DNA of 64,000 nucleotides from an uncultured delta proteobacterium (GCA_963771175.1 CAVYSY010000033.1:384001-448000), one strand, 5' to 3'; shown: positions 1 through 24,961, counted from the stretch's first letter. The notes: generated from the letters alone by a model not told the origin. Numbers and translations are program-made.

Positions 1-1379
1 GTGATGAAGAGGATGGGCAGCTCCCGCCACTCGGGCATGGAGCGCACGATGCGGCACAGGTCGAACCCGCTGGGGCCTGGCATCTCCACATCCAGCAGCA
101 GCAGGTCCGGCCGGTGCTCGGCCAGCGCCTCCACCAGGCGATAGGGGTCTCCTATCCCCACCACCTCCACCAGGGCGCTGGTCAGGGCGGCGCTGAGGAC
201 ACGCACCGCTTCGGGGTCATCATCCAGCACCAGCACGCGTGAGCGTTCCGGGCGTCGGGCGGCCACCATCCGCTCCACCGCCTCCGTCAGGTCACGCGCG
301 GAGAAGGGCCGGGGCAGGTAGAGGGACGCACCGGCATGGGCCGCCGCCACCCGGTAGGCCACGTCTCCCTCCGTTCCGAAGAAGGCCAGCGGCAGGGACT
401 GCAACCCGTCCTCACCGCGCAATCGCGCCGCCGTGGTGAAGCCTCCCTCCCGGCCTCCCAGGTTGACGTGCAGCAGCGCTCCATCCAGCTCCCGCCGCCG
501 CGCGGCCGCCACCACCTCGTCCGCGCTGCGAGCCGTCACCACCCGCACCAGCAGGTCCTTCCCCATCCGCTCCACTTCGGCCAGCCACGCCTCATCCTCG
601 TCCGCCACCAACACCGTGCCCTGGGATTGCACCGGGCCCGCGCTCTCCACCAGCGTGGACACCGCGCCCTGGGCCACCTCGGCCAGTTCTCGCAACGCCC
701 TGCGCACGGAGCCCGGGTCCACCGGGGCCTTGTCGTCCCGGGCCTGTTTCAGCAATGCCTCCAGGCGCCCCGCCGCCGCGCTCACGGCGCCGAAGCCACA
801 GGAGCCCGCCGTCCCATGCAGCTTGTGGGCATGCAGGTACGCCTCCCGCAGGGACTCGCGCTCGCCTTGCAGCACCCGATCCACCACCGCCGTCAGCAGC
901 CGGATCTTCTCTCCCAGCTGGGCGCCATACTCGGAGCTCAGCGCCGCCATGGCGGTGATCACCTCGTCACTGGCGCCCTCCAACAGCGACGCGGAGCGCG
1001 AGTCCGCTGGCTCGGCCAGCACCTGCTCCACCCAGAAGAACAGCTCCTGGGGGGTGTAGGGCTTGTGCACCACCCGCGCCACCCTGAGCTGCCGGTTGAG
1101 GTGGTCGTGGCTCGTGAGATCCTTCCAGAAGGCGGAGGCGAAGACGATGGGGAGGGTCGGCTCCGTCTGGCGCAGTTCCTGGATGAACTCCACCCCGCTC
1201 ATCCCCGGGAGCATTCCATCCACGATGGTGGCGTCCACCCGGACGCGTGCCAGCACCTCGCGCGCCTCCGCGGCGGTTCGGGCCGACTCCACACGGTAGC
1301 CCCGATCACGCAGGTAGGTGGAGATGAGCGACTGCAGGTCTGCATCGTCATCGAGGAAGAGAAGCGTTCCGCGACTCAT
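1..1379 (-). CDS. Multidomain response regulator (REC-Hpt-pseudoREC-REC), runs off the window's left edge; output domain not visible
   Basis: Manual translation from ATG 1379 (GAGGTG RBS): MSRGTLLFLDDD...IVDGMLPG (REC), HKLHGTAGSCGF (Hpt), GALLHVNL (REC with Asp->His), RVLVLDDD...LLLDVEMPG (REC). Absent from the ORF track because it has no stop codon in the window. Confidence 0.9.
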   Translation of the reverse strand, partial: MSRGTLLFLDDDADLQSLISTYLRDRGYRVESARTAAEAREVLARVRVDATIVDGMLPGMSGVEFIQELRQTEPTLPIVFASAFWKDLTSHDHLNRQLRVARVVHKPYTPQELFFWVEQVLAEPADSRSASLLEGASDEVITAMAALSSEYGAQLGEKIRLLTAVVDRVLQGERESLREAYLHAHKLHGTAGSCGFGAVSAAAGRLEALLKQARDDKAPVDPGSVRRALRELAEVAQGAVSTLVESAGPVQSQGTVLVADEDEAWLAEVERMGKDLLVRVVTARSADEVVAAARRRELDGALLHVNLGGREGGFTTAARLRGEDGLQSLPLAFFGTEGDVAYRVAAAHAGASLYLPRPFSARDLTEAVERMVAARRPERSRVLVLDDDPEAVRVLSAALTSALVEVVGIGDPYRLVEALAEHRPDLLLLDVEMPGPSGFDLCRIVRSMPEWRELPILFI

Positions 1380-1486
1380 ACGGACACCTCGGGCGGGGCG
1401 GGTGGAATCATGGGAGGGCTCGCAGGGAGGCGGGCGGGTATGGCGTGCCAGTCTAGCGAGGCCGAATCGGGGACGGGCGTGCATGT

Positions 1487-1770
1487 TCAGTGAAGCACCT
1501 CACTTCACGCGGAGTGGTGCTCCAACTGCACCGGCTCGGCCCACTCCTCCGCGAAGCGCCCCTGCGCTGCGGCCATGTCCTGGCGCCTCCGCTCGCCCCA
1601 GCGCTTCGAGCAGGTGGGACAAGCAAGCGGTGCGCTGGGTGCGCAGGCGCTACGGGCAAGCCCACTCGCCCGCGGCCCCCAGCAGCGTCTTGGCGTGGAG
1701 GTCCTCCGCGAAGAGGCCGGAGAGGAATTCATGGACCTGCTGCTCGTTGATAAATGAGGGGATGCCTGAG
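1487..1770 (-). mobile_element. Internally deleted IS4-like element remnant (MITE-like)
   Basis: Minus strand reads INEQQVHEFLSGLFAEDLHAK joined directly to TLLGAAGE; I recognise these as N- and C-terminal segments of myxobacterial IS4-family transposases. End sequence aaatgaggggatgcctgag at 1752-1770, with a degenerate inverted counterpart near 1487-1506. Confidence 0.55.
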
Positions 1771-1871
1771 GGGATAGACGTTACCGCGCCAACGCGAGGG
1801 GTGACGGCGGCGAGCACGCTGGTACACCTGGTCGCGCTGTGCCAGCAGTTGAGCCTCGCGGCCGGACGCGC

Positions 1872-2567
1872 CTACCCGCCGGAAGCGAGCTTCTTTCGCC
1901 GAGCAAGCTCCGCTTCGGTCGGCTTGTCCAACGCGAACGACCCGGTCTTCACCTCTCCGGCGCGTTCGTACGTCGCGATGACGACACCAGTCGGTGAGAC
2001 AGCGGACTTCGTGAGCTTCAATGCACCGGGCGCGATGCCGGGCCCGAACAGCCGTTTCCCCCGGCCGAGCAGCACCGGGTAGATGAGGAGACGCAGCTCA
2101 TCGACGAGCTGATCCGCGAGCAACGTCTGGAGCAGCTCGCTGCTGCCCTGAACGAGCAACACCGGACCCTCCTGCTTCTTGAGCGCGCGCACCGCGTCCG
2201 CGACGTCCTCGCCGAGCCACTGCGTGTTCTTCCAGGTGAGCGTCTCGGGGGAGTGGGTGGCCACGTACTTGGTCGCGCGGTTGAACGTCTCCGCGACCTG
2301 AGCGTTCAGCGTGTCGAAGGTGCTCTTCGAAGGATCGGTCTGGATGTAGGGCCAATACGCCGCGAAGATGTCGTAGGTGCGCCGGCCGAGAAGAAGGTCG
2401 AAGGGCTGCGAAAAGCCTTCGCCGAGCGACGCACCAATGGTGTCATCCGAATACGGCATCGTCCAGCCGCCGAACTGGAAGCCACCGGTCGGATCCTCCT
2501 CCGGACCACCCGGCGCCTGCATCACGCCATCGAGACTGACGAATACTCCGGCCACGACTCTTCGCAT
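1872..2567 (-). CDS. Dihydrofolate reductase family / RibD C-terminal domain protein
   Basis: MRRVVAGVFVSLDGVMQAPGG, LLLGRRTY, VQGSSEL, LVDELRLLIYPVLLGRGKRLF; aaggag RBS. Confidence 0.92.
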   Translation of the reverse strand: MRRVVAGVFVSLDGVMQAPGGPEEDPTGGFQFGGWTMPYSDDTIGASLGEGFSQPFDLLLGRRTYDIFAAYWPYIQTDPSKSTFDTLNAQVAETFNRATKYVATHSPETLTWKNTQWLGEDVADAVRALKKQEGPVLLVQGSSELLQTLLADQLVDELRLLIYPVLLGRGKRLFGPGIAPGALKLTKSAVSPTGVVIATYERAGEVKTGSFALDKPTEAELARRKKLASGG

Positions 2568-2600
2568 GGAGCTGCTCCTTCGAAAGGGGTTCAGACCTAC

Positions 2601-2627
2601 GACGAACGGTCCCGGCGGGGATCGACA
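2601..2627 (-). promoter_or_regulatory. Putative ECF sigma promoter (TGTCGA-N17-CGTC, ECF42-type) upstream of the DHFR-family gene
   Basis: Minus strand tgtcga tccccgccgggaccgtt cgtc, preceded by an A-tract, about 35 nt upstream of the ATG. Confidence 0.5.
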
Positions 2628-2951
2628 TGGCCGCGAAGATTTTTTCCCGGTCCGCGGCAGTGCAGGGCCGACACGAGCCGGCTCCACAGCTCGCCGCCGG
2701 TACGGCCATCATCGGCGGAGAGTGAGCGTGTCCATGCACGGTAGCCAGGCCCAGCCCGGGCCTCGTCGTTGTCGAACCTTCATGAATGTTCCCCCTTGAG
2801 GAGCCAGAGGCTCCCGCCGCGAAGCTCTACACGGCCCTGCCCGCCTTCAAGCGACCTGCACCGGGGGGAGAGGCGAGCGGCAATGGGGCATAGGAAAGCC
2901 CAGCACTCATCACGTACACTGCTCATCCCTGGACCTCCTTCGAAACAGCCG

Positions 2952-3398
2952 TCACGGGCCCGCGGGCGCAGCGGGTCCGTAGAGCTCGAGCTCCGAGACA
3001 GAGTACGAGTTGTCTTCCCACTCCAGCACCCCCATGTGGCACACGGCTGACCTGGCCGCACTGGCTTGAGGAGAGCGGCAGGGAGTTGTGGGTCGTGGCT
3101 GCGCCAAACTCAACACCACGCCTGCTGGGGTAGCCCCTGCGCCGGGGCTCGCCTGGCAGGCCGCGTGGGCAGTCCCAGGTGCTCCACAATGGCGCGCCCC
3201 CCGCTGGGTGCTGTCTCGTACGCCAGCACTCGCCGCCTGCCTCCACACCTCACGCAGGCTCACGCCTCCCTCCCCTGGCACGAAGACTCCGTCCGGTACC
3301 AGCGCATGGGTGACCCGCCAAGCTCTTACTCGACTTCCCTGAAGGGGGTTGGCACACGCCCCCACCCACTCGGGAGAGGTCCCCGGGCAGGCGAGCAC
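2952..3398 (-). CDS. Possible small or degenerate ORF directly downstream of the vWA gene (discoidin-like C-terminus?)
   Basis: Starts 4 nt after the vWA gene stop and ends ...NSYSVSELELYGP; the middle does not read like a protein and may be frameshifted. Confidence 0.25.
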   Translation of the reverse strand: MLACPGTSPEWVGACANPLQGSRVRAWRVTHALVPDGVFVPGEGGVSLREVWRQAASAGVRDSTQRGARHCGAPGTAHAACQASPGAGATPAGVVLSLAQPRPTTPCRSPQASAARSAVCHMGVLEWEDNSYSVSELELYGPAAPAGP

Positions 3399-3402
3399 TC
3401 GC

Positions 3403-5481
3403 TCAACTCCACTTCATGTAGAGGTTGCCCACCCGGTACACCATGTTGGGCGTGTACCCGAGCGCCAGTTCCTCGGCCGGTACGGGCTCCCACTTCCCGG
3501 TGCGCTGCACCTTTCGCTCGAGCCCTCCCGCGGTGACGAAGCGCGTGGAGCCACCGGGCCCCGCTTCGAGCACGAGCACGGCCGCACGCGGAGAGCGCAC
3601 GAAGTCGCCTCCCGCGTTCAGGCACATCCGGGCGTTGCGGTAGAAACCACGGGTGCCACCGGGAGTCTCGCGCAGAGTGAGGGCCGAGGCGCGCTTGAGC
3701 CCCATCTCCGAGCCCGCCACGTAGACGCTGGCGGCCGGGTCGAAGTCGCTCGGCCGGACGAAGCCCATGACGACCCAGCCGAAGAAGAGCATGCCCCCCG
3801 CCAGGGCGAGCCAGGGCCACCAGCAGCGCAGCCAGCCCGTCTCCGACACCCTCACGAGTGCCGGGACCGTCACGGCGGCGGCGGCGTAGTGCGGGTGGCC
3901 GGCGGCGAAGAGCACCCCGATTCCCGGCGGGGCGAGCTGTCCGCAGCACCCCTCGGCGACGAAGCAGATTTCATACTTGAGCGGCTGTCCCTTGCGGCCA
4001 TTGCCCAGGTCCGCCTCGGAGCCCGCGACGGGCGCGCAGGAGAGCAGGCCTCCCTCCACAATCCCCTGCGCGGTGCAGGAGATGGGGACACGGTCCGCGT
4101 TGGTGGAGCGAGACAGGTCCACCACCGAGCACCGGCGCGTCTCGCTTCGCTCTCCCCGCCACTCGCCGAAGTCGAGCGAGGCCGGATTGGGCACCAGGGC
4201 GAGGTCGAGGAAGCCCTCCACCTGCACGGCCCGGCGCGCGCTCTGCTCCATCCACGCGTTGCGGAAGGTCACCGACACCGGCGTGGACGCGCCGTCCCGC
4301 GAGGGCTCCGAGGGCGTCCAGTCCGCCACGAAGCGCCCTCCCCCGGTGTGGCGCAGGGGCACCTCCTGGCCGTCGATGGTGGCCACTGCCGCGAAGCCGT
4401 CCGCCTGGAAGAAGGTCTCGTCGTCGAAGGTCTTCCCGCGGAAGAGCAGCCGTGCGTCGAGCTGCACCGGCTCGCCTACTCGCGCGGTGGGAGGCACGGC
4501 TAGCGAGGCCTCGAGGTCGTACCGAAGGATGAGGCCGTAATCGATGTCGCCCGACCCCTTCGGCAGCGACAGCGTCCAGCGACTGCGCGCGTCCGGCGAG
4601 TTGGGCGCACGAAAGACCTGGTAGTTGCGGTGCGGGGGCCGGCACAGCTTGGGCGCGTTGGCGTAACGGAGATTCGGCGGGCAGCCGTTGTCACCCGAGG
4701 CCTGGGACGGGACGTTGCCCTGGGGCCCCTCCAGCTTCGCGGTATAGGCGGGCCCGGGCGAGGCGGACGCCGTGGCCACCAGCACCTCCACCACGTACTT
4801 GCCCACCTCGAAAGTCTTCGACTGGCCGGGGGACAGCGAGCCCGTCTCCGGCCGTGAGCCGAGGACGCGGGCATAGCCCCGGGTGAAGGCGCCAATCACC
4901 TCGCGCGGCGTCTGGACGAAGACGAGGTCCTGCGGGTTGCGCGCCAGCGGACGGAGGAACTGCTCGCCCGTCTGGCGGACCTCGTCGCTGCCGAAGAGGC
5001 CGATGACCAGCGTCTCGAAGTCGGCCGACTCGGAGAGGCCAAGGGACCGGGGACCCTCGGAGGGGTCCCTCAGGTCCTCGGGGATGCCGTCGGTGAAGAA
5101 GAGGAACAGCCGGTTCTGGAGCGCCGAGCTTCGCAGCCGGTTGCCCGCCTCTTCCAGCGGGCGGCGGAAGAAGGTGCCGTTCGCGTAGGGCAGCGCGCGA
5201 ATGTCGTCCGCGCTCTGGGCCGGGCGAGGCGGGGCGTCCTTGCCATCACCAAAGGCCAGCACGCTGACCCGGTCGGCCGAGCCACGTGCCAGTCCCTCGA
5301 CGACGAGCGTGCCGAGCACCGCGGCGCGCTCGGGGTCATTGGGAGGCACCCGGCGCCCCGTCGTCTGGTCCCGGGCCTCCACGCCCATGGAGCACGAGTT
5401 GTCGAGGATGAGGACGATCTCGTTGCCACCGCCGGCCGCGCCGGTGAGGAGCAGGGGCAGGACGAGCTGCGCGAACGTCAT
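3403..5481 (-). CDS. Single-pass membrane protein: signal peptide, vWA (MIDAS) domain, beta-rich Cys-containing ectodomain, TM, ~120-aa cytoplasmic domain
   Basis: IVLILDNSCSMG (DxSxS), LFFTDG, TM WWPWLALAGGMLFFGWVVMGF; 692-aa ORF. Confidence 0.88.
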   Translation of the reverse strand: MTFAQLVLPLLLTGAAGGGNEIVLILDNSCSMGVEARDQTTGRRVPPNDPERAAVLGTLVVEGLARGSADRVSVLAFGDGKDAPPRPAQSADDIRALPYANGTFFRRPLEEAGNRLRSSALQNRLFLFFTDGIPEDLRDPSEGPRSLGLSESADFETLVIGLFGSDEVRQTGEQFLRPLARNPQDLVFVQTPREVIGAFTRGYARVLGSRPETGSLSPGQSKTFEVGKYVVEVLVATASASPGPAYTAKLEGPQGNVPSQASGDNGCPPNLRYANAPKLCRPPHRNYQVFRAPNSPDARSRWTLSLPKGSGDIDYGLILRYDLEASLAVPPTARVGEPVQLDARLLFRGKTFDDETFFQADGFAAVATIDGQEVPLRHTGGGRFVADWTPSEPSRDGASTPVSVTFRNAWMEQSARRAVQVEGFLDLALVPNPASLDFGEWRGERSETRRCSVVDLSRSTNADRVPISCTAQGIVEGGLLSCAPVAGSEADLGNGRKGQPLKYEICFVAEGCCGQLAPPGIGVLFAAGHPHYAAAAVTVPALVRVSETGWLRCWWPWLALAGGMLFFGWVVMGFVRPSDFDPAASVYVAGSEMGLKRASALTLRETPGGTRGFYRNARMCLNAGGDFVRSPRAAVLVLEAGPGGSTRFVTAGGLERKVQRTGKWEPVPAEELALGYTPNMVYRVGNLYMKWS

Positions 5482-7664
5482 CTAGAGCTCCACCTTGAAG
5501 TACGTGCCCCCGGCCCGGTACAGCACCGAGGGGGAAGGAACGTGTCCCTGGGCCAGGTCCGTCACCGGCTCCCACTTGAGGGTGCGGCGATCCTGCTGCT
5601 CCAGGGGGCCACTGCCCTGTCAGCACCACACCGGCACCGCGGGTGGCGCGAAGCACGATGGGCGCGTTCCGGATGCGGCCATTCACCTCGCCATCGCCGT
5701 GCAGGCCCAGCCGGGCATCCCGGAAGAAGCCGGGACTGCTGCCGGGGCAGTCTTGGAGGAGGATGGCGGCGGCCTGTCGCATGCCGCGATCGCTCCCGGC
5801 CACGCGGATGGACGTGCCGGGCGGGAAGCGCGAGGGCTGGGTGAAGCCGGCGAGCAGCACACCGAAGCCGAGCAGCGCCAGCGAGGGCCACACCCACGCG
5901 CCATGGCAGCCGAGGAAGCCCTGGCCCTCGACCTTCCAGCGCAGACGCACCGTCTTCTCCTGGGCCTTGAACTCGGGGGTGAGCGGCACCACGCGCAGCA
6001 CGGCCGAGTCCGGCGACACGTCCCCGGCGCACCGAGGCACCTCCAGGCAGATGTCGAGTCGGCGCTCCCTCGGGTCCAACGCATCGATGCCGAGCGAGGG
6101 CAACAAGCCGCGCACGTCCGCCTGTCCCAGCGCATTGAGGAAGCTGAGCACCGGGCGAGCCTGGCAGCCGTCGAGCCCCTCGGCGCGCAACTCCCAGCGG
6201 TGCTCCTCGGCGCCCTGGGAGCGGCTGAAGTCGAGCTTCTGGCAGGCCTCCGTCACGGCGGTGCCCGCGGCGATGGTGCCGAAGTCCAGCGTCTCCGGCA
6301 GCTCCAGCCTGAGCTGGGGGCGCACCCGCACTTCGTGCGCGGGCATCGAGAATGGGCCCTCGCGGCGTCTGGAACACGACCGACCAGCTCGCGGCCTGGG
6401 GCTCGGCGTAGGTGACGCTGAACTCGTACCGGTCATCCGGTCGGGGCGGCCCGCTGTAGCGCACCTCGCCGGTGTCCACCATGCGGGCCTCCACCTTGGG
6501 GTCCGCGAGGAGCGCGTCCACCTGCTGGCGACCCGTACCCGGTGCCGGGCGGAGGAGCCGAACCGTGCCCCGGCAGGGAAGCCCGGCGTAGCAGGTGCGC
6601 GGCAGCTCCGAGGTGTCGAAGCCGAGCCCGAGGTCGCTCACCGTGGCCGTGACTTCCTCCGTGGGGCACACCACGCGATCGCCCGCGCGGCCGCCCGCGC
6701 TGATGCGTACCTCGCGCGGCTTGGGGGAGGCGGGTGGCGTCCATGCGGCCGAGAGCGAGCCATCGGCGGGAATCGTCCCCGGCTTCTCCCCTTCCACCTG
6801 GACAGTGAACGCCAGCGAGAGTCCCGCGGGTGGCGAAGTCACGGGCACCTGCCCCGCCGCATCGAAGAGTCTCGCGCTCAGCAGGGTGGACTGTCCGGCC
6901 ACGAGCGCCTCATGCACGGTGGGCTGCACCACGCGCGCCCGGTAGCTGCACACCTCCACCTTCAGACTCTGGGCCTCGGAGGCCGCCGCACGGAGCTGCT
7001 CGTTCTGGGCGAGTGGCGGCGCCATGGGGACGAACTCGATACGCAAGGAGCTGGAGGGCGGAAGGGAGAACCCGGCCGACACGGTGCCGTCGGGTTGCAC
7101 GGTGCCTCGATGCTCGGAGGTCTGGCCATTCGCGTCGGTGACGCGGAAGGTGCCGCCGGTGATGCGGCGCAGCGCCCCGTGCTCATCGCGAACCGCTCCC
7201 ACCACCGTCACCTCATCCCCGGCGGTGTACGGCCCCGGGGAGATGCGCTCCACCCGAGCGTCGAGTTGCACGGGCGGAGGCGGCGGAGGGGGCGTGACGG
7301 GCTTGCCGTCGATGACGTGCGCCACCAGGTTGTCCGCGCCGTGCTTCTCCCCGTAGAGCCGCGCGCACTCGTACGGCTCCGCGCGCCGGTAGGTCCCCGA
7401 AGAGCGCGAGAGGAACTTCGGAATGCAGGTGGAGTCCTCCTCGTCGTAGCAGACGAAGCACTCCTGACCGTTGGTGACCCAGCAGTGGTAGTGCCACTTG
7501 GAGTGCATCGCGCGTACGGCCGGCATGTCGCACGCGGCCACCACGTTCGGCGGAGTCCCCTCATACCCTCCAACGCAGTAGGTGTCCCCTTCCTGCGCCC
7601 GAGCAGACGTGGCCAGCAGGAACGACACAACGGCGAGCAGCGCTGGGAGCGCGCGGGCCATCAT
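5482..7664 (-). CDS. Large single-pass membrane protein (signal peptide, Cys-rich N-domain, Ig-like region, TM, cytoplasmic domain); two frameshifts (~6345, ~5615)
   Basis: Pieced from three frames: MMARALPALLAVVSFLLATSARA...; ...MPAHEVRVRPQLRLELPETLDFG...; ...GPLEQQDRRTLKWEPV...GGTYFKVEL*. The start overlaps the PP2C stop (ATGA), and the TAG abuts the next gene's ATG. Confidence 0.78.
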
Positions 7665-8773
7665 TTCCCTCCGTCGGGAGACGGCTGTCCACCTACGGTG
7701 GGCGGTACCGGAGCCTGCTCGGGAGAGGAGGAAGCGCCACCACTCGTGGCCCTCAGCCCCAAGGCGAGGCCCACGCCCAGTGCCAGCACACCCGTCGCGA
7801 GCAGCCACCACAGGGGAACCCGGCGCCCGGATTTCCCCGTGGGTGCGACGGTCTCGGACACGGGCGGCGAAGCGGACTCGACCGTGCGCTGCTCGGGCCT
7901 CGGCGCGGCCTGTGTTGGTGCCACGGAAACAGGCGTCGGGGGCACCACCACCGAGGCCAGGGGCATCCCGTCCGGCAGCGTCTCCCGACGTCGCTCCTGG
8001 GGCTCCTGCACCACGCGCGGCACCTCCGGCTGACCCGCCACGAGGAGGATGACCGTGATGTTGTCGGCGCCTCCGCGCTCGTTGGCGATCTGGATGAGCC
8101 GCGTCACCGCGTCCTGATAGTCGCGGCCCTCGATGAGCGGGTACAGCTCGTGGTCCTCGATGAAGTCGTACAGCCCGTCGCTGCACAGCAGCACCACGTC
8201 ACCGGACTTCAGCTCCAGCGGCTCCGTCCAGACCTCGGGCTTGAAACTCTTCTGGACTCCCGGGCTTCCCCCCAGCGCCTGCACGAGTACGTGCGCGTCC
8301 GGGTGTTGCCTCGCCTCCTCGGGCGTGAGGATGCCGTGGCTGACCATCTGCGCGACCCTCGTGTGGTCTCGCGTGCGGTCGATCAGCGCGCCGGCTCGGA
8401 ACTGGTAGAGGCGGCTGTCACCCACCCAGCCGACGTAGCAGCGCCCCTCCAGCACCCAGCCGATGACGCCCGTCGTCCCCATGCCCTCCACGCCTCGAGT
8501 GAGCGAGGTCTCGACCACGGCCTGGTTGGCCTCGACGAACGCCTGATAGAGGGCGCGGGGCGGGTTCTCGGGCGAGCTGGCGGAGATGACCTCGACGATG
8601 CGATCGCTGGCCACCTGGCTGGCCACCTCACCGGCCTCGTGGCCACCCATGCCGTCACAGACGACGAGCAGCCGCGAGCCATCCGGCGGGGCGGCGACGC
8701 GGAAGGAGTCCTCGTTCTGGGCGCGCTGGCGCCCCACGTCGGAGCTCCCGTGGATGTAGAGCGGGAGGCTCAT
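7661..8773 (-). CDS. PP2C/PPM-family Ser/Thr phosphatase (Stp1/PrpC-like) with C-terminal TM
   Basis: SDVGRQRAQNED, VCDGMGGH, GMGTT, VGDSR, LLCSDGL, GGADNIT; TM LWWLLATGVLALGVGLALGL. Confidence 0.95.
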   Translation of the reverse strand: MSLPLYIHGSSDVGRQRAQNEDSFRVAAPPDGSRLLVVCDGMGGHEAGEVASQVASDRIVEVISASSPENPPRALYQAFVEANQAVVETSLTRGVEGMGTTGVIGWVLEGRCYVGWVGDSRLYQFRAGALIDRTRDHTRVAQMVSHGILTPEEARQHPDAHVLVQALGGSPGVQKSFKPEVWTEPLELKSGDVVLLCSDGLYDFIEDHELYPLIEGRDYQDAVTRLIQIANERGGADNITVILLVAGQPEVPRVVQEPQERRRETLPDGMPLASVVVPPTPVSVAPTQAAPRPEQRTVESASPPVSETVAPTGKSGRRVPLWWLLATGVLALGVGLALGLRATSGGASSSPEQAPVPPTVGGQPSPDGGK

Positions 8774-10836
8774 TCGTCATCTCCCCTCGCGGGTGCGTAG
8801 AGGGTCCTGGCCTTCGCCCGAGGCGCCTCGGCGGCTGGCTGCGGTGCGTCGGGAGCAACCGGAGGCGCGGCGACGATGGGCGCACCGGCCGGAGGCGGCT
8901 CGGCGGAGGGCTGGAGCCCGGGCTGCTCCAGTGTGAGTTCCAGGTGCTGCGACAGGCGGATGGTCTGACCGGACTTCACCTGGACGCGCTCGCCCGGGTT
9001 CAGGCGGCGTCCGTCCACGAAGGTGCCGTTGGTGGAGTTCTCGTCCTTGACGAAGACGTTGCCCGCCTTGAAGAGCTGCACGGTCGCGTGGTGTCCGCTG
9101 AGCTGGGGCAAGTCCACGGCGAGGTCCATCTCTCCCGACCGTGCGCCAATGGTGAACGAGGACTTGTGGACCCGGTAGAACGGCTCGAGGCCAGGAGGCC
9201 CCCGGGTCACCATCAGCCGGGTCTCCGGCAGCGTGGCGAAGGGGTCCTTCCACACCACGGGAGCAGCCGGAGGAGGCTCGGGCTGTGCGGGGGGCGGCTC
9301 GGGCGCGGGGGGAGCCGCGGGCTTCGCCTCCTGAACGGGAGCCGGAGCAGGTGTCGAGCGGCTCCGGGACAACAGCACGATGAGCACGACCAACAGGAGC
9401 AGCCCCAGGCCCAGGAGCAACAGCACGAGCAGCCACCAAGGCCACACGCGAGGAGCCTGCACGGAGACGGGTCCCCCCATTCCACCACCGGGCTGCATCG
9501 CCGGCCCGGGAACGCCCGTCCCCGCTCCGGGTTGTGTCGAGGCACCTGCGCTCCCCGCCGGAGGGCCTGGCCGCGAGCCCATCCCAGGACCCGGTCGCGT
9601 CGTGGAGCCGGAGGAGCCCGGCATGGTGCCGGGAGCAGTGGTGGACCCGGAGGTGCTCGGGGAGGTGCCGTGCCCGGTGGGAGATCCGGAGGTACTCGGG
9701 GAGGTGCCGTGCGCGGTGGCTGACCCGGAGGAGCCCGGTGTGGAACCAGAGGGTCGCGACGATCCGGAAGTCGTGCCCTTCGCGCTCCCTGGCTGTGTCG
9801 GGGAGGGCCCGGTGGCGACCGAGGAGGGACAGGCGATGGTCGCCCGGCCCTCGGCGCTCTGCCGGAAGGAGACGGGATCGCTCCAGGCGGTGCGAGCGCG
9901 ACCCGAGAGGGACTCCACGAAGAGCCGGTCCGAGGTCTGCCCGCGCTTCACACCGCAGAAGGCCACGTCCAACCAGTAGATGTGCTCCAGCGAGCGCACC
10001 AGCCCCCCGAGCGCCTGCCGGGCATCCACGTCCTCCACCTGGATGTAGCGGCCACCGGTGCCCGCGGCGAGCTGGGACATCTCGTCGAGTCGCTGGGCGA
10101 TGCCCTTGCCCCTGGTTCCATCACTGAAGACCACCACGTGGAGGCGCACACCCAGCTCGCGTGCATCACCAACGAGCTTCTTCAGGCTGAGCGCGCTCGA
10201 CTCCTCGCCGGCATCGGTGAAGACGATGACCTCGCGCGAGCCACCCTTGGAGAGCGGCTGCTTGCGAGCGGCCTCGCGCATCGCGTCCTGGATGTAGAAC
10301 TTGAGCCGGGTGACGAGCTGGTGCGTTCCGAGCCGCTGGACCTTGTCCAGGCACGCCTCGAGACCGGCGGCGGAGGTCTCCTGACAGTGGGTGGCCTTGC
10401 TCTTCCCGAAGGTCATGACCGCCACGGTGTGGTTCCGTGGACGGGGACCGAGTGCTCCCGCGTAGGCCTTCGCGAGCTCGAAGGCCTGTGGCCAGTGCGA
10501 GGAGAAGGACCCGGACTGGTCGAAGGCGAGGATCGTGTAGCTCCCCTCCCCGGTGTCGGCCAGCCGCTGGAGCGCGGTGACCTGCGCGCCGGCCTGGCCC
10601 ACGGCGACGCGGAAGCGCTCCGGAGAGGCACCGGCCGCCCGCAGCTCCTTCTGGAGGGTGGGGTCGGTGACCTCGAACTGGAGCCGCATCTGCCCGGCGG
10701 ACGCGGGCGGCGTCGCGAGCACGGTGAGACCATTGTCGGCGGCGCTCGCGGGAGCCCCCACGAGGAGCACGGCGAGCAGGCTCGCCATCATGATGGCTGT
10801 GCGATGGATGTGCATCCCCCCTCCAGAGGAGCTCAC
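8770..10836 (-). CDS. vWA domain + Ser/Thr/Gly/Pro stalk + TM + cytoplasmic FHA domain protein
   Basis: Signal peptide; LAFDQSGS (DxSxS) and VFTD; TM WWLLVLLLLGLGLLLLVVLIVLL; FHA motifs IGAR, SGHH, STNGT. Confidence 0.9.
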   Translation of the reverse strand: MSSSGGGMHIHRTAIMMASLLAVLLVGAPASAADNGLTVLATPPASAGQMRLQFEVTDPTLQKELRAAGASPERFRVAVGQAGAQVTALQRLADTGEGSYTILAFDQSGSFSSHWPQAFELAKAYAGALGPRPRNHTVAVMTFGKSKATHCQETSAAGLEACLDKVQRLGTHQLVTRLKFYIQDAMREAARKQPLSKGGSREVIVFTDAGEESSALSLKKLVGDARELGVRLHVVVFSDGTRGKGIAQRLDEMSQLAAGTGGRYIQVEDVDARQALGGLVRSLEHIYWLDVAFCGVKRGQTSDRLFVESLSGRARTAWSDPVSFRQSAEGRATIACPSSVATGPSPTQPGSAKGTTSGSSRPSGSTPGSSGSATAHGTSPSTSGSPTGHGTSPSTSGSTTAPGTMPGSSGSTTRPGPGMGSRPGPPAGSAGASTQPGAGTGVPGPAMQPGGGMGGPVSVQAPRVWPWWLLVLLLLGLGLLLLVVLIVLLSRSRSTPAPAPVQEAKPAAPPAPEPPPAQPEPPPAAPVVWKDPFATLPETRLMVTRGPPGLEPFYRVHKSSFTIGARSGEMDLAVDLPQLSGHHATVQLFKAGNVFVKDENSTNGTFVDGRRLNPGERVQVKSGQTIRLSQHLELTLEQPGLQPSAEPPPAGAPIVAAPPVAPDAPQPAAEAPRAKARTLYAPARGDDE
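9605..9778 (-). repeat. ~4.5 imperfect 39-bp tandem repeats encoding 13-aa units (HGTSPSTSGSPTG-like)
   Basis: Units begin at 9605, 9644, 9683, 9722 and 9761 (ga[gct]ccgga...). Confidence 0.85.
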
Positions 10837-11585
10837 GGGGAACGTCGGGACAGCAGTGACTCGGGCACGATGACGAGCACCAGGGTCATCCCTCCCAGTG
10901 AGAGCACCGCGTGGTTCTGGAGAACGACCTGCTCACCGTGGACGACGGCCCCGTTGACGATGGAGCCGTTGCTGGAGACGTCCATGTACGAGGCGTCCTC
11001 GGCGCGGATGAACAGGAAGGCGTGCTGGCCGCTCACGCGTCCGTCATCGACCACCACGTCGCACTCGGCGTTGCGACCGAGCACGTTGCGCCCGGCGCGC
11101 AGTGGGTGGACGCGCCCGGGGTCGTTGGGGCCGCGGTACTCGAAGAGGGCGCCACGGATGAGGCCCGCGGCCGTCCCCTCGTTGGCGGTCTCCACGATCG
11201 TCCGGGCCTTGGGGCGCGGAGCGGCGGGCGCCGGGGCCGCGGCTGGCGCCGGTGGCATGGCGGCGGGCGCGGGCGCGGCGGCCGGACGGGAGGGCGGAAG
11301 AGATGCGGCGGCGAAGGGGTCGCGAGGATCGAAGGTGGGCCGGGGCGGAGGATTGGCGAAGAAGTCCGCGCTGCGGCGAGGGATGGGCGGAGGAGGCGCC
11401 GCCGCCGGATCCGGCTCGAAGATGGTGTGCCGCTTCTGGTGCGGGTTGGCCGGCTGGGGCGGCGGAGGCGGCGCGGGAGCGCTCTCGGCGACCGTGCCGT
11501 GCTTGGGAGGCGTCAGGTCCAAGCCGCACATGTCGCAATAGGCGGCGCCGACGGCGTTCTCGTTCTGGCAGGAAGGACAGCGCAT
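10833..11585 (-). CDS. Zinc-ribbon + Pro-rich linker + FHA domain protein
   Basis: MRCPSC...YCDMC; FHA motifs LGRN, SGQH, SSNG; its stop overlaps the next gene's start. Confidence 0.9.
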   Translation of the reverse strand: MRCPSCQNENAVGAAYCDMCGLDLTPPKHGTVAESAPAPPPPPQPANPHQKRHTIFEPDPAAAPPPPIPRRSADFFANPPPRPTFDPRDPFAAASLPPSRPAAAPAPAAMPPAPAAAPAPAAPRPKARTIVETANEGTAAGLIRGALFEYRGPNDPGRVHPLRAGRNVLGRNAECDVVVDDGRVSGQHAFLFIRAEDASYMDVSSNGSIVNGAVVHGEQVVLQNHAVLSLGGMTLVLVIVPESLLSRRSP

Positions 11586-12207
11586 GGGGGGCGTGTATCC
11601 GACTCTAGGGCACGCTCTGGAGGAAACTCCAGCCGGACGGGGCTCCCGGAGCCGTACGCACGAGCCCCTCGGGGATTGCAGACCTCCCCTCGACGCGTCC
11701 CGAGGCCGAAGTGCCCGCTCCCGTGGCTCCCGTTCCACAACCGCCGCCTCCATCACCCCCGCCGCCCCCCGAGACCCGCTCCCTGGCATGCGTTCCGCGC
11801 CCGGCACCTTCGTCGCCAGCCATTCCAGAGCATGGCGGACATGCCAGCGAGGAGCAGTGTCCCGCCCAGGGTCAGCGCCAGGAGTGCCCCGAGCTTGCCC
11901 ATCGCCGGAACACCCCCGAAGGACGCCCTTCGAGGGCTCGGTCCTTCGGTCTCAGCCCCGATCGGGCTTCGACCGCCTGGTCTCGCGTAGACGGTCGCCC
12001 GGCGATACTTGTCCCGGGTCAACAACTCATCCCTGGGCGGCCATCGGCACGGGCAGTGTCTAGCTTCAGTGGCGTACCGGCTCGAGTCAGTGACGTAACG
12101 GCTCGTCATCGAGGACACGAGCGTCAGCGCGGTTCTCGAACGATGCCCGGCTGACAAACATAGCGGGGTGCAGGCTGTCGGGCGCCGGCTTGAATGGAGG
12201 CATGAAT

Positions 12208-13271
12208 ATGCTCACCGTCGTCTATGACACAAAACCCTACGACCGGGAGCAACTGCTCGCGGCTGCTCCTCGGGACACACTCCAGTGGCAGTTCTGGGAC
12301 TTCCGGCTCAGCACCGAGACCGCGCGGACTGCGAGCGGGGCGCAGGCCGTCTGCGTCTTCGTGAACGACGTGGTGGACCGGCCGTGCCTGCAAGACGCTC
12401 GGCGGGCTGGGCGTGAAGCTGCTGGCCCTCCGTTGCACGGGGTACAACAACGTCGATCTCCGCGCTGCGCGAGAGGCGGGCATCACCGTCACGCGCGTGC
12501 CCGTCTACTCCCCCTACGCCGTGGCTGAGCACGCCGTGGCCCTGCTGCTGACGCTCAATCGAAAGATCCACCGCGCATTCAACCGCGTGCGCGAACAGAA
12601 CTTCTCGCTGAACGGCCTGGTCGGCACCGACTTGCACGGCAAGACCGCCGGGATCTTCGGCACCGGCAAGATCGGCCGCATCACCGCCCAGATCCTGCGC
12701 GGCTTCGGCATGCGCATCCTGGCCTTTGACGCGTTCCCGGCCTCCGAGTGGGCGCGGCAGATCGGCGTGGAGTACGTCGACGCCCAGCACCCTCGCGCGC
12801 GAGAGCGACGTCATCTCGCTTCACGTGCCGCTGACGCCCGAGACCAGGCACATCATCCGCGGCGAGACCCTGGAGCTGATGAAGCCGGGGGCAATCCTGA
12901 TCAACGTGAGCCGTGGTCGCCTGATCGACACCACCGCGCTGATCGCCGCGTTGAAGGCCGACAAGCTGGGCGGCGTGGCGCTGGACGTCTACGAGGAGGA
13001 GGAAGGCGTCTTCTTCGAGGACCTGTCCGGCCAGGTGCTCCAGGACGATGAGCTGGCGCGGCTGCTGACGTTCCCCAAGGTCCTGGTCACCGCCCACCAG
13101 GCGTTCCTGACCCGGGAGGCGCTGGGTGACATCGCCCGGACGACCGTGGCGAACCTGGAGGCGCTGGCCGCGGGTCGGCCCTTCGTCGACGGTTCCGTGC
13201 TGACCGCGGTCGACGATCCGTGCGACCGCGGTCCCGCTGTCCTGCGAAGCGAAGTCGGGAAGCTCGCCTGA
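12208..13271 (+). CDS. ldhA: D-lactate dehydrogenase (2-hydroxyacid dehydrogenase), frameshifted at ~12400 and ~12790
   Basis: [56 protein letters not shown] spread across three frames. Confidence 0.88.
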
Positions 13272-13286
13272 TTCATCGGAGGCCCC

Positions 13287-14750
13287 ATGTCACTGCCTGA
13301 CCACAAGACCAAGATCGTCGCGACCATCGGGCCGGCTTCCGACTCGCCCGAGATGCTCGAGCGGCTGATCGCCGCCGGGTTGAACGTCGCGCGGCTGAAC
13401 TTCTCGCACGGCGACTTCACGGCGCACGCCGGGACGATCGCCCGCCTCCGGGCGGCCGAGAAGGCCGTGGGGCGGCCGGTCACCATCATGGCCGACCTGC
13501 CCGGACCCAAGATGCGGCTCGGCACGATCGACCCGGAGCCGATCAACCTCGTGGCCAACGACCGCTTCACCCTGACCACCGAGCCGATCACCGGCAACGC
13601 GAAGCGCGTCTCGATGAGCTTCGCGGCGCTGCCGAAGGTGGTCAGACCCGGCGACCGCCTGTTCCTGAACGACGGGCTGGTCCAGCTCGTCGTCGAGCGC
13701 GTCGCCGGCAACGACGTGGAGTGCGTGGTCGCGGTCGGCGGCGAGCTGCGCTCCCGCAAGGGGCTGAACCTCCCGGGGATCGACCTGGGGATCAGCGCCT
13801 TCACCGACCGGGACCGCGCCTGCCTGAGCTTCGCCCTGGAGCACGGCGTCGACGCTGTCAGCCAGTCCTTCGTGGAGACGGCGGCGGACATCGAGGCGGT
13901 GCGCGAGGCGGCCGCCGCGCGCGGGAAGCAGCCCTTCATCATCGCCAAGATCGAGCGTGCCGGCGCCCTCGAGCACTTCGACGAGATCCTGGCCGCCGCC
14001 GACGGAATCATGGTGGCCCGCGGGGACCTGGGCGTCGAGGTGCCGATCGAGGAGATCGCCCTGATCCAGAAGGAGCTGATCGCCCGGGCGAACCTCGCGG
14101 GCAAGCCGGTCATCACCGCCACGCAGATGCTCGAGTCCATGGTGTCCAGCCGCCTCCCGACGCGCGCCGAGGCCACCGACGTGGCCAACGCCATCCTCGA
14201 CGGCACCGACTGCGTCATGCTCTCCGCCGAGTCGGCGATGGGCCGCTATCCCGGTGGAGGCCGTCGCGATGCTGGCGAGCATCGCGGCCGCGACCGAGGC
14301 GAAGCGCCCGGCCAGGCGGCTTGCCGACCAGCGGGCGGACGGCTCCGGCTGGCAAGCCGACGACGGCGGCGGAGGCCATTGCGTCGGTCGTGGAGCACGC
14401 GCTGGAGACCGTCCCGTGCGCGGCGGTGGTGGTGCCGACGCAGGAGCGGGACCACCGCCCGGATGATCTCCCGGTTCAAGCCGGCGGTGTGGGTGGTCGC
14501 GGTGAGCAGCGACCCGGCGGTCTGCCGTGGCCTGGCATTCTCGTATGGGGTGCTGGCCGTCCTGCAGCCGGACGAGCCGGCGGACTGGCGAAGGTTTTCG
14601 GTGGACTGGGTCCGCCAGGAGCAGGTCGCCGGACCGCTGGTCATGCTGGTCTCGGGTCCCTCGAAGAGCGACCCGCAGGCGAACTACCGCCTCGAGTTCA
14701 TCAGTACCGGCGAGCGAGCCCTCGCTCCCGAAGTGGAAGCTCCGCATTGA
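13287..14750 (+). CDS. pyk: Pyruvate kinase, with compensating frameshifts ~14250-14450
   Basis: [57 protein letters not shown]. Confidence 0.95.
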
Positions 14751-14874
14751 CAGGGTTCGACCCTCGCGAGCTCGTCCCACTCGTCAACGCAGTGGGCAGT
14801 CCTTAGCTTCATTGCGAACTCTTCGGGGGACACCAGTCATGGCACAACCAGTCGCCAAGCAACGAGAAGAGACG

Positions 14875-15922
14875 ATGCGGGGTGCGATCCTGCCGGGCAA
14901 TCGGACGGTGGAGTTCAGGGAAATCCCCATCCCCCAGCCGCAGCACGGGCAGGTGCTGGTCAAGATAAAGGCCTCGAGCCATCTGCGGCAGCGACATCCG
15001 CGCCATCTATCGGGCTCACATCGGCGAAGGGGCCGAGCGTTACATCCCCGGCATGATCGCCGGACACGAGCCGAGCGGGGAGGTCGCGGCGGTCGGACCG
15101 GGTTGCCAGGCGCTGCGGATCGGCGATCGCGTGTCCGTCTACCACATCAGCGGCTGTGGGGTCTGCGACGACTGCCGCCACGGCTACCAGATCAGTTGCA
15201 CCAACCCGGCGCGGGCCGCGTATGGCTGGCAAAGGCACGGCGGCCATGCGCCGTGGATGCTGGCGGACGAGCGCGACTGCATCCCGCTGCCCGCGAGCCT
15301 GTCCTACGTTGACGGCGCCCTGTGCGCTTGCGGTCGTCGGTACCGCCTGGGAAGCCCTGACGCGGATCGGCGTCACCGGCAGCGATGCGCCTGCTGGTGA
15401 CGGGTCTGGGGCCGGTCGGAATGGGCGTGGCGATGCTGGGCAAGGCGCTGGGAGCAAACAAGGTCATCGGCACGGAAGTGTCGGCGGTGCGGCGAAAGCT
15501 GGCCATGGACCTCGGCCTGGTCGACGAGGCCCTGGAAGCGGACGACAAGGCGCTGGCCCGGATCAAGGACCTCACGCGCGGCCGGGGATGCGAGGCCAGC
15601 GTCGATTGCTCGGGGTCGGCAGCGGGGCGATTGCTGGCCCTGCACGGCACGCGACAGTGGGGGCGATGCGCGTTCGTCGGTGAAGGCGGCAAGGTCGAGT
15701 TCGACGTCTCGCCAGTGCTGATTCATCCGCAGATCACGCTGTACGGGTCCTGGGTGACTTCGCTCAAGCATATGAGCGATCTCTTCGATCGCCTCGACCG
15801 CTGGGGGGTGCACCCGGAGAAGATCGTCACGCACCCGCTTGCCGCTGAGCGAGGCGGCGCGCGGCTACCAGCTGGCCGACCAGGGCGAGGCCGGCAAGGT
15901 GTGCTTCGTCTTCGACATCTGA
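14875..15922 (+). CDS. Zn-dependent medium-chain alcohol/sugar-alcohol dehydrogenase, several frameshifts
   Basis: ICGSD, GHEPSG, structural Zn motif CGVCDDC...C, GLGPVG; ends ...GKVCFVFDI*. Confidence 0.85.
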
Positions 15923-15943
15923 CCTCGAGAGGAGTCACGCCGC

Positions 15944-16921
15944 ATGATGCTGCTCGCCGGAGATGTGGGCGGAACGAAGACCGCGCTCGCCCTGGTGCAA
16001 GGCGGAACCATCGTCGAGCGGCAGGTCTATCCGAGCGCCGCCTTCACGAGCCTCGAAGCGCTGGTGGGCGAGTTCCTGGGCCAACGGGGCAAGGAGATCT
16101 CGCGGGCGTGCTTTGGCATCGCCGGCCCGGTGATCGAGGACAGCTGCCGGACCACCAACCTGCGCTGGGTCGTCGAGGCGAGGAGCCTCGAGCACGCCCT
16201 CGGGGTGCCGCGCGTCACCCTGGTCAACGACTTCCATGCCATGGCCATTGGGATCACCGTGCTGCCCGCGTCCGACTTCGCCGTCCTGAACGACTCGCCG
16301 TCGGATCCCAAGGGTCCGTGGGCGTTGATCGGCGCTGGGACCGGGCTCGGAGAGGCGGTGGTGGTCCGCATCGGGGACGGCTACGAGGTGGTCGCCTCCG
16401 AGGGCGGCCACGCGGACTTCGCGCCGCGCAACGAGCTGGAGATCGACCTGTTGAGGTTCCTGCTGAAGAGGCACAAGCGCGTCTCCTACGAGCGGATCGT
16501 CTCCGGGCGCGGGCTGGTGGCGCTCTACGAGTTCGTGCGTGGCCGCTCGCCCGAGCTGGAGTCCGCCGTGGTGAGCGAGGAGATTGCCGACTCGTCCGGC
16601 GACGCCGCTCCGATCATCTCGCGCCACGGGCTCGCCGGCGACGACCCGCTCTGCGCTCAGGCGCTGTCGCTGTTCGTCTCCATCTACGGCGCGGAAGCGG
16701 GGAATCTCGCGCTCAAGGTCGTGGCGCGCGGCGGGGTCTTCATCGGGGGAGGAATCGCCCCGAAGATCCTGCCCAAGCTGCTCGACGGGACCTTCCGCGC
16801 CTCCTTCGTCGCCAAGGGCCGGCTCAGCCCCCTGCTCGAGGCGACGCCGGTGAAGGTCGTGCTCAACAGCGACGCCGGACTGCTCGGCGCCGCGGCGCTG
16901 GCAGCCCGCCTCTCCCTCTAG
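15944..16921 (+). CDS. glk: Glucokinase
   Basis: AGDVGGTKT, GIAGPV, LVNDF, GAGTGLG, SEGGH, SYERIVSG, GGGIAPKI. Confidence 0.95.
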   Translation: MMLLAGDVGGTKTALALVQGGTIVERQVYPSAAFTSLEALVGEFLGQRGKEISRACFGIAGPVIEDSCRTTNLRWVVEARSLEHALGVPRVTLVNDFHAMAIGITVLPASDFAVLNDSPSDPKGPWALIGAGTGLGEAVVVRIGDGYEVVASEGGHADFAPRNELEIDLLRFLLKRHKRVSYERIVSGRGLVALYEFVRGRSPELESAVVSEEIADSSGDAAPIISRHGLAGDDPLCAQALSLFVSIYGAEAGNLALKVVARGGVFIGGGIAPKILPKLLDGTFRASFVAKGRLSPLLEATPVKVVLNSDAGLLGAAALAARLSL

Positions 16922-16957
16922 CCTGCCAGTAAGCGCCTTTCCTTGGCCGAGGTGAGG

Positions 16958-17005
16958 ACAATGGCCAACATGAACGATGGCTGACATGAACAATGGCTGA
17001 CATGA
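16958..17005 (+). repeat. Three tandem 16-bp direct repeats upstream of pfk
   Basis: acaatggccaacatga / acgatggctgacatga / acaatggctgacatga. Confidence 0.9.
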
Positions 17006-17020
17006 AGGGGAGGCGCGGAC

Positions 17021-18120
17021 ATGCTCGACCCCAAGAAGATCAAGCGAATCGCCATCAACACCGGCGGCGGCGACGCGCCGGGCCTCAACGCCGTCATCCG
17101 CGCGGCCACCCTGGCGGCCATCGAGCGCGGCTGGGAGGTCTACGGCATCCGCCACGGCTACCGCGGCCTCATCGACACCAAGCGAGCTCGTCCCGCTGAC
17201 CCGCGAGTCCGTGCGCGGCATCACGCACCTGGGCGGCACCATCCTGGGCACCGCCAACAAGGGCAACCCCTTCGAGTACCCGATCCAGACGCCGGAGGGC
17301 GTCCAGCTCACCGACATCTCCGACCAGGTGGTCGAGAACTTCCGCGCCAAGCAGCTCGACGCCCTCATCTGCATCGGCGGCGACGGCTCGCTGCGCCTCG
17401 CGCAGAAGTTCATCGCAGAAGGGCATCCCCATCGTCGGCGTGCCGAAGACCATCGACAACGACCTCTCGGGCACGGTGGCGACGTTCGGCTTCGACACCG
17501 CGGTGAGCACCGCGACCGACGCCATCGACAAGCTGCACTCCACCGCCGAGGCGCACGAGCGGGTGATGGTCGTCGAGGTGATGGGCCGCTACGCGGGCTG
17601 GATCGCGCTCGAGCGCGGGCGTCGCCGGGACCGCGGACGTCATCCTCATCCCGGAGATCCCCTTCGACCTCGAGAAGGTCTGCGAGAAGGTCATGCAGCG
17701 CGAGCGCGCCGGCCGCCACTTCTCCATCGTGGTGGTCGCCGAGGGCGCCAAGCCCAAGGGCGGCGAGATGATGATCCGCGGCCCAAGGAGGCCGGCCGCG
17801 AGGTCCTGCTCGGCGGCATCGGCCAGTACGTCGCCGACGAGATCGCGCGCAGGACCGGCAAGGAGACGCGCAACCTGGTGCTCGGGCACCTGCAGCGCGG
17901 CGGCGGCCCCACGACCTTCGATCGCCTGCTCGGCCTGCGCTTCGGCGCCGCGGCGGTGCGCACCCTCGCGGAGGGGAAGGTCAACGTGATGGTCGCGCTC
18001 GACCCTCCGACGGTGAAGACCATCCCGCTCACCGCGGCCATCGAGCGGATGAAGTCCGTGCCGCTCGACAGCGACACCGTGCTCACCGCGCGCGCGTTGG
18101 GAATCTGTCTGGGCGACTGA
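17021..18120 (+). CDS. pfkA: 6-phosphofructokinase, about four frameshifts
   Basis: [43 protein letters not shown]. Confidence 0.92.
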
Positions 18121-19936: not shown

Positions 19937-19946
19937 GGAGTCTACC

Positions 19947-20972: not shown

Positions 20973-20992
20973 GTGACCTTGGAGACTCATCC

Positions 20993-23784: not shown

Positions 23785-23786
23785 CC

Positions 23787-24913: not shown

Positions 24914-24961
24914 GTTCCGGTCCGTCTAGTCGACTCCCAAGAGGGCAAAGAGACACGAGGC

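Follow-up and report, generated by a model that had tools for sequence, protein, structure and literature searches.

Two adjacent genes on the minus strand of a 64,000-nucleotide stretch of DNA from an uncultured delta proteobacterium (GCA_963771175.1 CAVYSY010000033.1:384001-448000; the whole stretch is referred to as the window) raise the question of what two related membrane receptors with different heads do side by side, and whether they act as an obligate pair. Gene A and gene B, the latter located directly upstream, together occupy positions 3,403 to 7,664, and a preliminary description of the sequence had suggested an alpha/beta-type receptor pair resembling an integrin in its architecture. 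Here, the locus is identified as a myxobacterial variant of the known, so far uncharacterised FtsZl1/vWA cassette. The reading that we prefer, with a probability of roughly 0.6, is that A and B are paralogous receptors which form the membrane-spanning arm of this seven-gene cassette and whose tails dock to its tubulin-like machinery under the control of threonine phosphorylation. According to this reading A is the constant and B an accessory receptor, the two need not be an obligate heterodimer, and the breaks in the reading frame of B are most likely assembly errors.

A and B share their C-terminal ~265 amino acids (aa). In BLASTP searches, residues 433-643 of A align to the middle frame of B (6349..5609) with 71 of 224 positions identical (32%, E 8e-25), and residues 659-690 align to its third frame (5598..5485) with 16 of 34 (47%, E 1e-6). 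By the same method, nothing in A resembles the first 442 aa of B (best E 0.39). In an alignment of eight A-type and seven B-type modules, the two types are 34% identical to each other and 55 columns are invariant, and the module of B is also detected by local hidden Markov models (HMMs; Cmod 8.5e-130, Cyt 4e-22). Judged from these comparisons, A and B are paralogous throughout the C-terminal part that begins with the membrane-proximal domain, and their heads are unrelated. This had been proposed in the preliminary description, and all motif pairs listed there were recovered. Among 321 representative clusters (50% identity, obtained from 1.84 billion proteins), the module is C-terminal in all of the 150 that were listed.

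The cytoplasmic end of the module is a domain of ~117 aa. An AlphaFold2 (AF2) model that covers the 119 C-terminal residues of A and was built from 147 sequences reaches a predicted local distance difference test (pLDDT) score of 95.9 and supports an FHA/SMAD-type fold, which had earlier been put forward as a guess. In an exhaustive structural comparison (VIA) with 48,161 chains, each of the 50 rows listed is of the FHA or SMAD-MH2 type (Z 7.4 to 4.2), headed by the FHA domains of Ki67 (2aff, Z 7.4, root mean square deviation 2.6 over 84) and ArnA (5a8i, Z 7.0, deviation 3.6 over 93). ArnA from Sulfolobus acidocaldarius is a zinc-finger-FHA protein, which acts together with the vWA protein ArnB under Ser/Thr phosphorylation. 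Foldseek against the PDB agrees, with a weak best match (E 0.011, TM-score ~0.48) and leading rows that are nearly all FHA domains. All Z values for the tail stay below 8 and, taken alone, may reflect a common arrangement; the assignment is credible because the match list is uniform and the full domain is covered, and not because of any single Z value.

On the level of profiles, neither A nor the pieces of B match Pfam FHA at E 0.1, and hhalign returned a probability of 0.1% when a 24-row tail alignment was compared with six canonical FHA domains of the same cassettes. The tail is not covered by any Pfam or NCBIfam model, and NCBIfam also has no family for A, B, Tubulin_2 or the ~790-aa membrane protein of the cassette (P790). 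Canonical FHA domains bind phosphothreonine via a Gly-Arg pair, a Ser-x-x-His motif and an Asn, and in those encoded by the cassette the Ser, His and Asn are invariant. In the tail, the columns conserved to at least 85% over 187 modules are G573, P577, F580, L595, R597, L603, G608, G612, Y614, R615, A617, G625, A640, Y682 and G685, none of which is Ser, His or Asn. R597 and R615 may form a non-canonical phosphate site. The conserved features of the tail are a basic loop, PGGRRGFYRxA, and a C-terminal YRxG.

The homologues of A form 89 clusters of ~690 aa, mainly from Myxococcota. A consists of a weak N-terminal signal-like segment, a vWA head, three Ig-like domains, a transmembrane (TM) helix and the FHA-fold tail. 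The metal ion-dependent adhesion site (MIDAS) that had been noticed in the head holds up, as the motif DxSxS...T...D is present (D27-N-S-C-S31) and, among the A-type rows of two alignments (60 and 65 rows), conservation reaches at least 90% in every one of the LDxSxSM, T and DG columns. Against Pfam VWA_2, A reaches 14.5 bits (E 0.055), which is under the cut-off of 27 bits. The A-type relatives scanned likewise give sub-threshold VWA_2/VWA matches of 20-23 bits, several homologues of A carry a precomputed PF13519 annotation, and the only relative scanned with a VWA match above the cut-off is P0116 (38.3 bits), a member of clade II of the tree described below.

The region between head and membrane was modeled as well (AF2, residues 195-550, 65 sequences, pLDDT 95.5). 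The model is all-beta and displays three beta-sandwich domains, of which two form a stalk specific for the A type and the third is the juxtamembrane domain shared with B. For the stalk, Foldseek and VIA returned generic Ig/filamin/FN3-like matches with Z up to 11.6 and nothing more specific; for the juxtamembrane domain (model residues 234-353), the top single-domain match has a Z of 10.1. Over the 187 modules, C451, C506 and C512 of this domain are at least 98% conserved in both clades, and C553 (window 3820-3825), which lies on the outer side directly before the TM helix, is 100% conserved, including the equivalent position of B. In both clades, most members have an odd total of conserved cysteines.

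The genes around A and B are arranged in the order zinc ribbon-FHA (ZnR-FHA), vWA-TM-FHA, PP2C, B, A, Tubulin_2 (FtsZl1) and P790. This order is identical in three genera, represented by Archangium minus (L004), a second genus (G214, L048) and a member of another family (G108, L047). The Tubulin_2 protein of the cassette has ~1,080 aa (E about 1e-51 to 1e-54), and P790 contains one TM helix and has no Pfam match. That P790 could be a dead tubulin paralogue was examined as well, with a best BLASTP E of 1.2 and an hhalign probability of 12.6% over 52 columns, obtained with shallow alignments. The PP2C matches NCBIfam Stp1_PP2C_phos with 1.9e-65, slightly below the cut-off. Pfam scans of the cassette genes in four loci (the window, L004, L047 and L048) yielded neither a new-type GTPase nor an OmpA-family protein. 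Counting the vWA-TM-FHA protein, whose tail is a canonical FHA, along with A and B, whose FHA-fold tail is degenerate, the cassette encodes three receptor-like proteins.

Tubulin_2 adjoins A in L047, L048 and L135, and about one gene lies in between in L004 and L001. In the genome of the window, Tubulin_2 and P790 are intact and lie 14.4 kb downstream of A, on the strand that also encodes A; across genomes of the genus Archangium this distance ranges from ~0 to 14.4 kb. The space between A and Tubulin_2 may be an insertion hot spot inside the cassette. In the genome of the window it comprises window positions 1-3402 and G000:C33:373018-384000, and holds a RibD_C-like gene (1872-2687) and a gene for a triple-receiver/Hpt protein (3-1484).

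A survey of 401 Myxococcota genomes, in which six candidates per genome were scored so that copies were possibly missed, detected the module in 15 genomes. All 15 carry one Tubulin_2 gene. Tubulin_2 itself is above the cut-off in 22 of the 401, and the module occurs in none of the 379 Tubulin_2-negative genomes.

In all 14 other Myxococcota genomes with a match, a B-A pair is present and the copy number is exactly two; 13 of these pairs are located on one contig with the copies ~2 kb apart, and one is divided over two small contigs. The module tree (FastTree, 167 modules after removal of 20 near-identical A orthologues) splits at its root into an A-type clade I with a uniform length of ~690 aa and vWA heads, to which A belongs, and a clade II which holds B and all others (local support 95 each). 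The two copies of G108 fall on opposite sides of this split, so A and B separated before these families diverged. Other genomes depart from the pair. Vitiosangium has a cassette with A and without B, and a single module in a genome of 14.1 Mb. G244 and G266 contain one tail-bearing open reading frame (ORF) of 687 aa each, 155 and 205 bp from Tubulin_2, and no B-type gene. In G401, a metagenome-assembled genome, five to six module genes are spread over six contigs with none adjacent to another; one copy of 697 aa lies directly upstream of Tubulin_2-P790 and four solo copies with large heads are found elsewhere.

The heads are diverse. Among 76 representatives scanned with Pfam, a vWA was detected in nine (weak or clear), FG-GAP, Filamin and CarboxypepD_reg in one each, and a PP2C fusion in three, and mostly there was no Pfam match. 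In the three fusions (P0128, P0174 and P0225, 980-1085 aa), an N-terminal PP2C precedes the shared C-terminal module, which ties PP2C to the B-type receptor. By their arrangement, these proteins would be fusions of adjacent PP2C and B-type genes, with PP2C and tail both in the cytoplasm. The FG-GAP-headed member (P0117, L050:1535-4138, from G401; FG-GAP_3 E 1.7e-30) is solo and stands beside a two-component system and a TSP3/RHS/thioredoxin-like protein; a locus search based on it matched the FG-GAP head only in 75 of 76 loci and is uninformative on the module. Taken together, these patterns fit best with A as the constant receptor and B as a member of an accessory clade with swappable heads, all using one output tail common to all.

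Mechanistically, the preferred reading can be outlined as follows. A and B are paralogous single-pass (type I) envelope proteins that present different extracytoplasmic heads on an Ig-like stalk, a MIDAS vWA in the case of A and a Cys-rich domain followed by a beta-rich region in the case of B. The heads would bind ligands in the envelope or outside the cell, and the common tail would dock the receptors to the cytoplasmic tubulin-like machinery. Threonine phosphorylation could tune this coupling: a kinase encoded elsewhere would write the marks, PP2C would remove them, and the two canonical FHA domains would act as readers. This outline builds on the observed paralogy, the domain folds, the conserved operon, the co-occurrence with Tubulin_2 and the variation in copy number.

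Several points weigh against it. What the tail docks to is a guess, and the Z values behind the fold of the tail are low, as described above. The tail profile was negative in three of five Tubulin_2-positive genomes that were re-examined; therefore, the coupling of tail and Tubulin_2 is not universal. In the cassette genes of the same four loci (the window, L004, L047 and L048), Pfam detected no kinase. Furthermore, the 14 genomes with a pair span only three genera and 12 of the 15 module genomes belong to one genus, so these cases are not independent. Finally, B carries two frameshifts in a cassette that is otherwise free of them, which is taken up below.

The first question was whether A, with its vWA head comparable to integrin beta, and B are an obligate, integrin-like heterodimer that pairs through the juxtamembrane, TM and tail modules. 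The adjacency that the preliminary description had expected is real in the 14 genomes with a pair, and the stop codon of B lies 3 bases ahead of the ATG of A in the window and in ten Archangium loci. The presence of both clades in G108 points to an old split with both types retained, eleven A/B cluster pairs have a matching longest contig down to an A identity of 53% (indirect evidence), and one clade-II relative has an FG-GAP propeller head as in integrin alpha. However, Vitiosangium, G244 and G266 contain A without B, and in G401 none of the copies is adjacent to another and the FG-GAP member stands solo beside unrelated genes. Among the 50 stalk rows listed there is no integrin leg or tail domain, which by itself speaks neither for nor against the pair. 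Copy numbers of one, two and five to six per genome argue against obligate pairing, and we consider such a heterodimer unlikely; as an obligate partnership the earlier proposal is not supported. A facultative or lineage-specific A-B complex might form in the lineages that keep the pair. Bolder is the idea of a bacterial counterpart of adhesion receptors, in which the MIDAS vWA chain and a variable-head chain would pair via the juxtamembrane/TM module, and the FHA-fold tails would physically couple an outside ligand to the assembly of tubulin-like filaments, with threonine phosphorylation, through PP2C and the two canonical FHA readers, setting the coupling. In other genomes, relatives with FG-GAP propeller or other heads would belong to the same receptor class. 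We give this a slim chance; if true, a social bacterium that glides on surfaces would signal to a prokaryotic cytoskeleton both outside-in and inside-out. Another possibility is a biological-conflict or defence cassette, in which the receptors sense an attack on the envelope by a phage, a predator or a kin toxin and trigger the assembly of a tubulin-like effector. Such a role has been proposed for tubulin+vWA GAP1-N2 systems by Kaur et al. 2020 (PMC7159879), and it would suit the patchy family (15 of 401 Myxococcota), the variable insertion site of ~0 to 14 kb between A and Tubulin_2 across Archangium genomes and the fast evolution of B, the head of which is 67.6% identical between the window and A. 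minus as opposed to 90% for A. In contrast, A, B, the FHA proteins and the vWA-FHA protein have no PADLOC match at E 0.001 and PP2C has one weak match (PDC-M21C, E 1.6e-5), no GAP1-type GTPase, SLATT or other effector domain was detected in the cassette by Pfam, and no phage or mobile-element genes were seen beside the cassette in the loci read. A defence function appears very unlikely.

A different alternative concerns B alone, which could be a true, recently inactivated pseudogene, leaving A as the functional one of the two in this strain. B is composed of a signal peptide, a Cys-rich head, a Pro-rich linker, a beta-rich region and the shared module; its head has no FG-GAP or other credible match in Pfam, and a search of a protein collection with the Cys-rich head (residues 20-125) gave no usable match. 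Ten Archangium loci encode B as a single open frame of ~725 aa. The intact B of A. minus matches the window in three segments and three frames by tblastn (67.6%, 78.6% and 93.2% identity), and the frameshifts that had been suspected trace to one extra base near 6352/6353 and another near 5618. For comparison, 11 related loci and contigs from four public runs (three studies) were used; the latter are ~98% identical, none of them is the source, and the closest contained 0.56 of the words sampled from the window, against shares of 0.10 or less for RNA runs. Both extra bases are missing from all 11 loci, the base at 6352/6353 is missing from all four runs, and the one at 5618 from the three runs that bridge the site. 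In the remaining run (X4), contigs stop at 5614 and resume at 5619, precisely at the second extra base, and none bridges it. In favor of decay, two independent +1 insertions are found within 2.2 kb while the flanking ~11 kb of cassette and UvrA-like genes (A, PP2C, vWA-FHA, ZnR-FHA and the UvrA-like gene) hold none, neither insertion sits in a long homopolymer, and Vitiosangium has lost B entirely. Because the flanking genes are free of frameshifts, a genuine recent decay of B keeps some weight against the preferred reading. Nevertheless, at least seven other genes of the window are split between frames at 12-25 kb, where they were detected by a Pfam scan of stop-to-stop frames (a phase plot of G+C at third codon positions, GC3, could not by itself separate gene borders from frameshifts), and the assembly of the window probably carries many indel errors. 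Since, in addition, the related sequences lack both bases and the genome is 81.66% complete in 58 contigs, the two breaks are probably assembly indels in an ancestrally intact B, and the pseudogene is improbable, though not negligible. For the C-terminal third of B, the public annotation is probably incorrect. A 699-aa product on the contig of the window (P0278, 5562-8186, minus) appears to be the first frame of B continued into a wrong frame.

Table 1. Positions of the receptor genes, their domains and neighbouring features in the window
Feature	Position	Strand	Details
Gene A	3403..5481	minus	single ORF 5481..3406, stop 3403-3405, 692 aa
A, vWA head with MIDAS signature	4897..5418	minus	~residues 22-195
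A, stalk of two beta-sandwich (Ig-like) domains, A-type-specific	4216..4860	minus	~residues 208-422
A, juxtamembrane Ig-like domain, common to B	3841..4200	minus	~residues 428-547
A, TM helix	3754..3822	minus	~residues 554-576; hydropathy segment 556-576; position conserved in alignments
A, cytoplasmic FHA-fold tail	3406..3753	minus	residues 577-692; conserved basic loop PGG(R/T)RGFYRNAR
Gene B	5482..7664	minus	~725 aa when intact; frames 7664..~6353, ~6351..~5619, ~5617..5485; stop 5482-5484
B, shared C-terminal module (juxtamembrane, TM, FHA-fold tail)	5485..6349	minus	interrupted near 5618
PP2C Ser/Thr phosphatase	7661..8773	minus	370 aa; PP2C_2 1.4e-14, PP2C 5.4e-12; C-terminal TM, residues 319-343
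vWA-TM-FHA protein	8770..10836	minus	688 aa; FHA 1.3e-14, VWA 4.8e-10; signal peptide, TM ~466-493
Zinc-ribbon + canonical FHA protein, cytoplasmic	10833..11807	minus	324 aa; FHA 2.6e-11, Yop-YscD_cpl 1.8e-11, zinc-ribbon matches
Split genes	12365-25002	plus	ADH_N 14969-15397 / ADH_zinc_N 15361-16929; OEP repeats 18361-19620 / 19143-20597
Further split genes, same region		plus	two ABC_tran, two ABC2_membrane_3, truncated 2-Hacid_dh, truncated PFK
UvrA-like double ABC ATPase	24965-29719	minus	1585 aa; UvrA_DNA-bind, UvrA_inter; PADLOC mad3 2.5e-136, mad8 1.7e-51

The G+C content is ~70% across the window. The nearest relatives of its genes are found in Archangium (Myxococcota), and A shares 85-90% identity with records that carry the names Archangium and Vitiosangium. 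The UvrA-like gene listed in Table 1 is located directly upstream of the cassette in A. minus; in the window, ~13 kb of metabolic and transporter genes intervene. Its L004 counterpart of 1585 aa was considered as the missing kinase and rejected, since it is a UvrA-like ABC ATPase that lies 13 kb away in the window.

The locus offers a wiring that can be tested, with up to three bitopic receptors ending in FHA or FHA-fold domains, a membrane-anchored PP2C and a tubulin-like GTPase. The tail represents an unannotated domain family; a family model of its own could serve to collect all receptors that would feed the Tubulin_2 machinery. Furthermore, the natural variation between A alone, the B-A pair and many solo copies provides comparisons for single versus paired action of the receptors.

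Among the known systems, the FtsZl1/vWA operons are the closest. These predicted operons, with FtsZl1 (Tubulin_2, PF13809), have been catalogued, and a role in membrane remodelling has been proposed (Makarova & Koonin 2010, Biol Direct 5:33, PMC2875224). As outlined there, the gene for an FtsZl1 of ~1,000-1,200 aa is directly preceded by that for a vWA protein, membrane-bound or secreted and with an intact MIDAS, and followed by that for a large uncharacterised, often membrane, protein; the supplement lists this trio for the myxobacterium Plesiocystis pacifica. Genes for a protein kinase, a new-type GTPase and OmpA-family proteins are described as frequent, non-obligatory accessories. Within the supplements of that paper, two planctomycete neighbours are the sole entries with the term "FHA", and "phosphatase" is absent from the FtsZl1 neighbours; the paper contains no description of the cytoplasmic tail, and its supplementary table mentions no cytoplasmic tail domain, PP2C or paired receptors. 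A literature search that covered open-access papers and preprints found no functional study of an FtsZl1/Tubulin_2-vWA cassette. Like these operons, the present cassette combines Tubulin_2 and a vWA protein within one predicted operon. Unlike them, it encodes three receptor-like proteins, two of which are paralogous with an FHA-fold tail, as well as two canonical FHA domains and PP2C, and it lacks a kinase, a new-type GTPase and an OmpA gene.

Neighbourhoods of tubulin, membrane vWA and kinase/PP2C in Firmicutes and Actinobacteria have been treated as conflict systems enriched in multicellular prokaryotes (Kaur et al. 2020, PMC7159879). Operons of the type vWA-Ser/Thr protein kinase (STPK)-FHA-PP2C are known as TerY-P type triads, with DRA0331-0334 of D. 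radiodurans as an example (bioRxiv 10.64898/2026.01.23.701218). The cassette resembles these triads in co-encoding vWA, FHA and PP2C, which suggests control of a vWA-containing complex by threonine phosphorylation; it differs in that no kinase is encoded, the vWA domains are extracytoplasmic parts of bitopic proteins and a tubulin-like GTPase is included. With the FHA domain (PF00498), the tail has the beta-sandwich fold in common, and the cassette also encodes PP2C and canonical FHA proteins, whereas the tail shows neither profile similarity nor the conserved Ser, His and Asn. The comparison with integrins likewise has two sides. The type I topology, a MIDAS vWA-type head on one chain, the Ig-like stalk, the single TM helix and the small cytoplasmic domain are alike, as are the genetic linkage to a cytoskeletal protein and the FG-GAP propeller head of one family member. 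In contrast to integrins, no homology of stalk or tail was shown, the head of B is not a propeller, FG-GAP is confined to the distant solo member P0117/L050, one to six copies occur per genome, and a folded FHA-like cytoplasmic domain takes the place of the short integrin tail.

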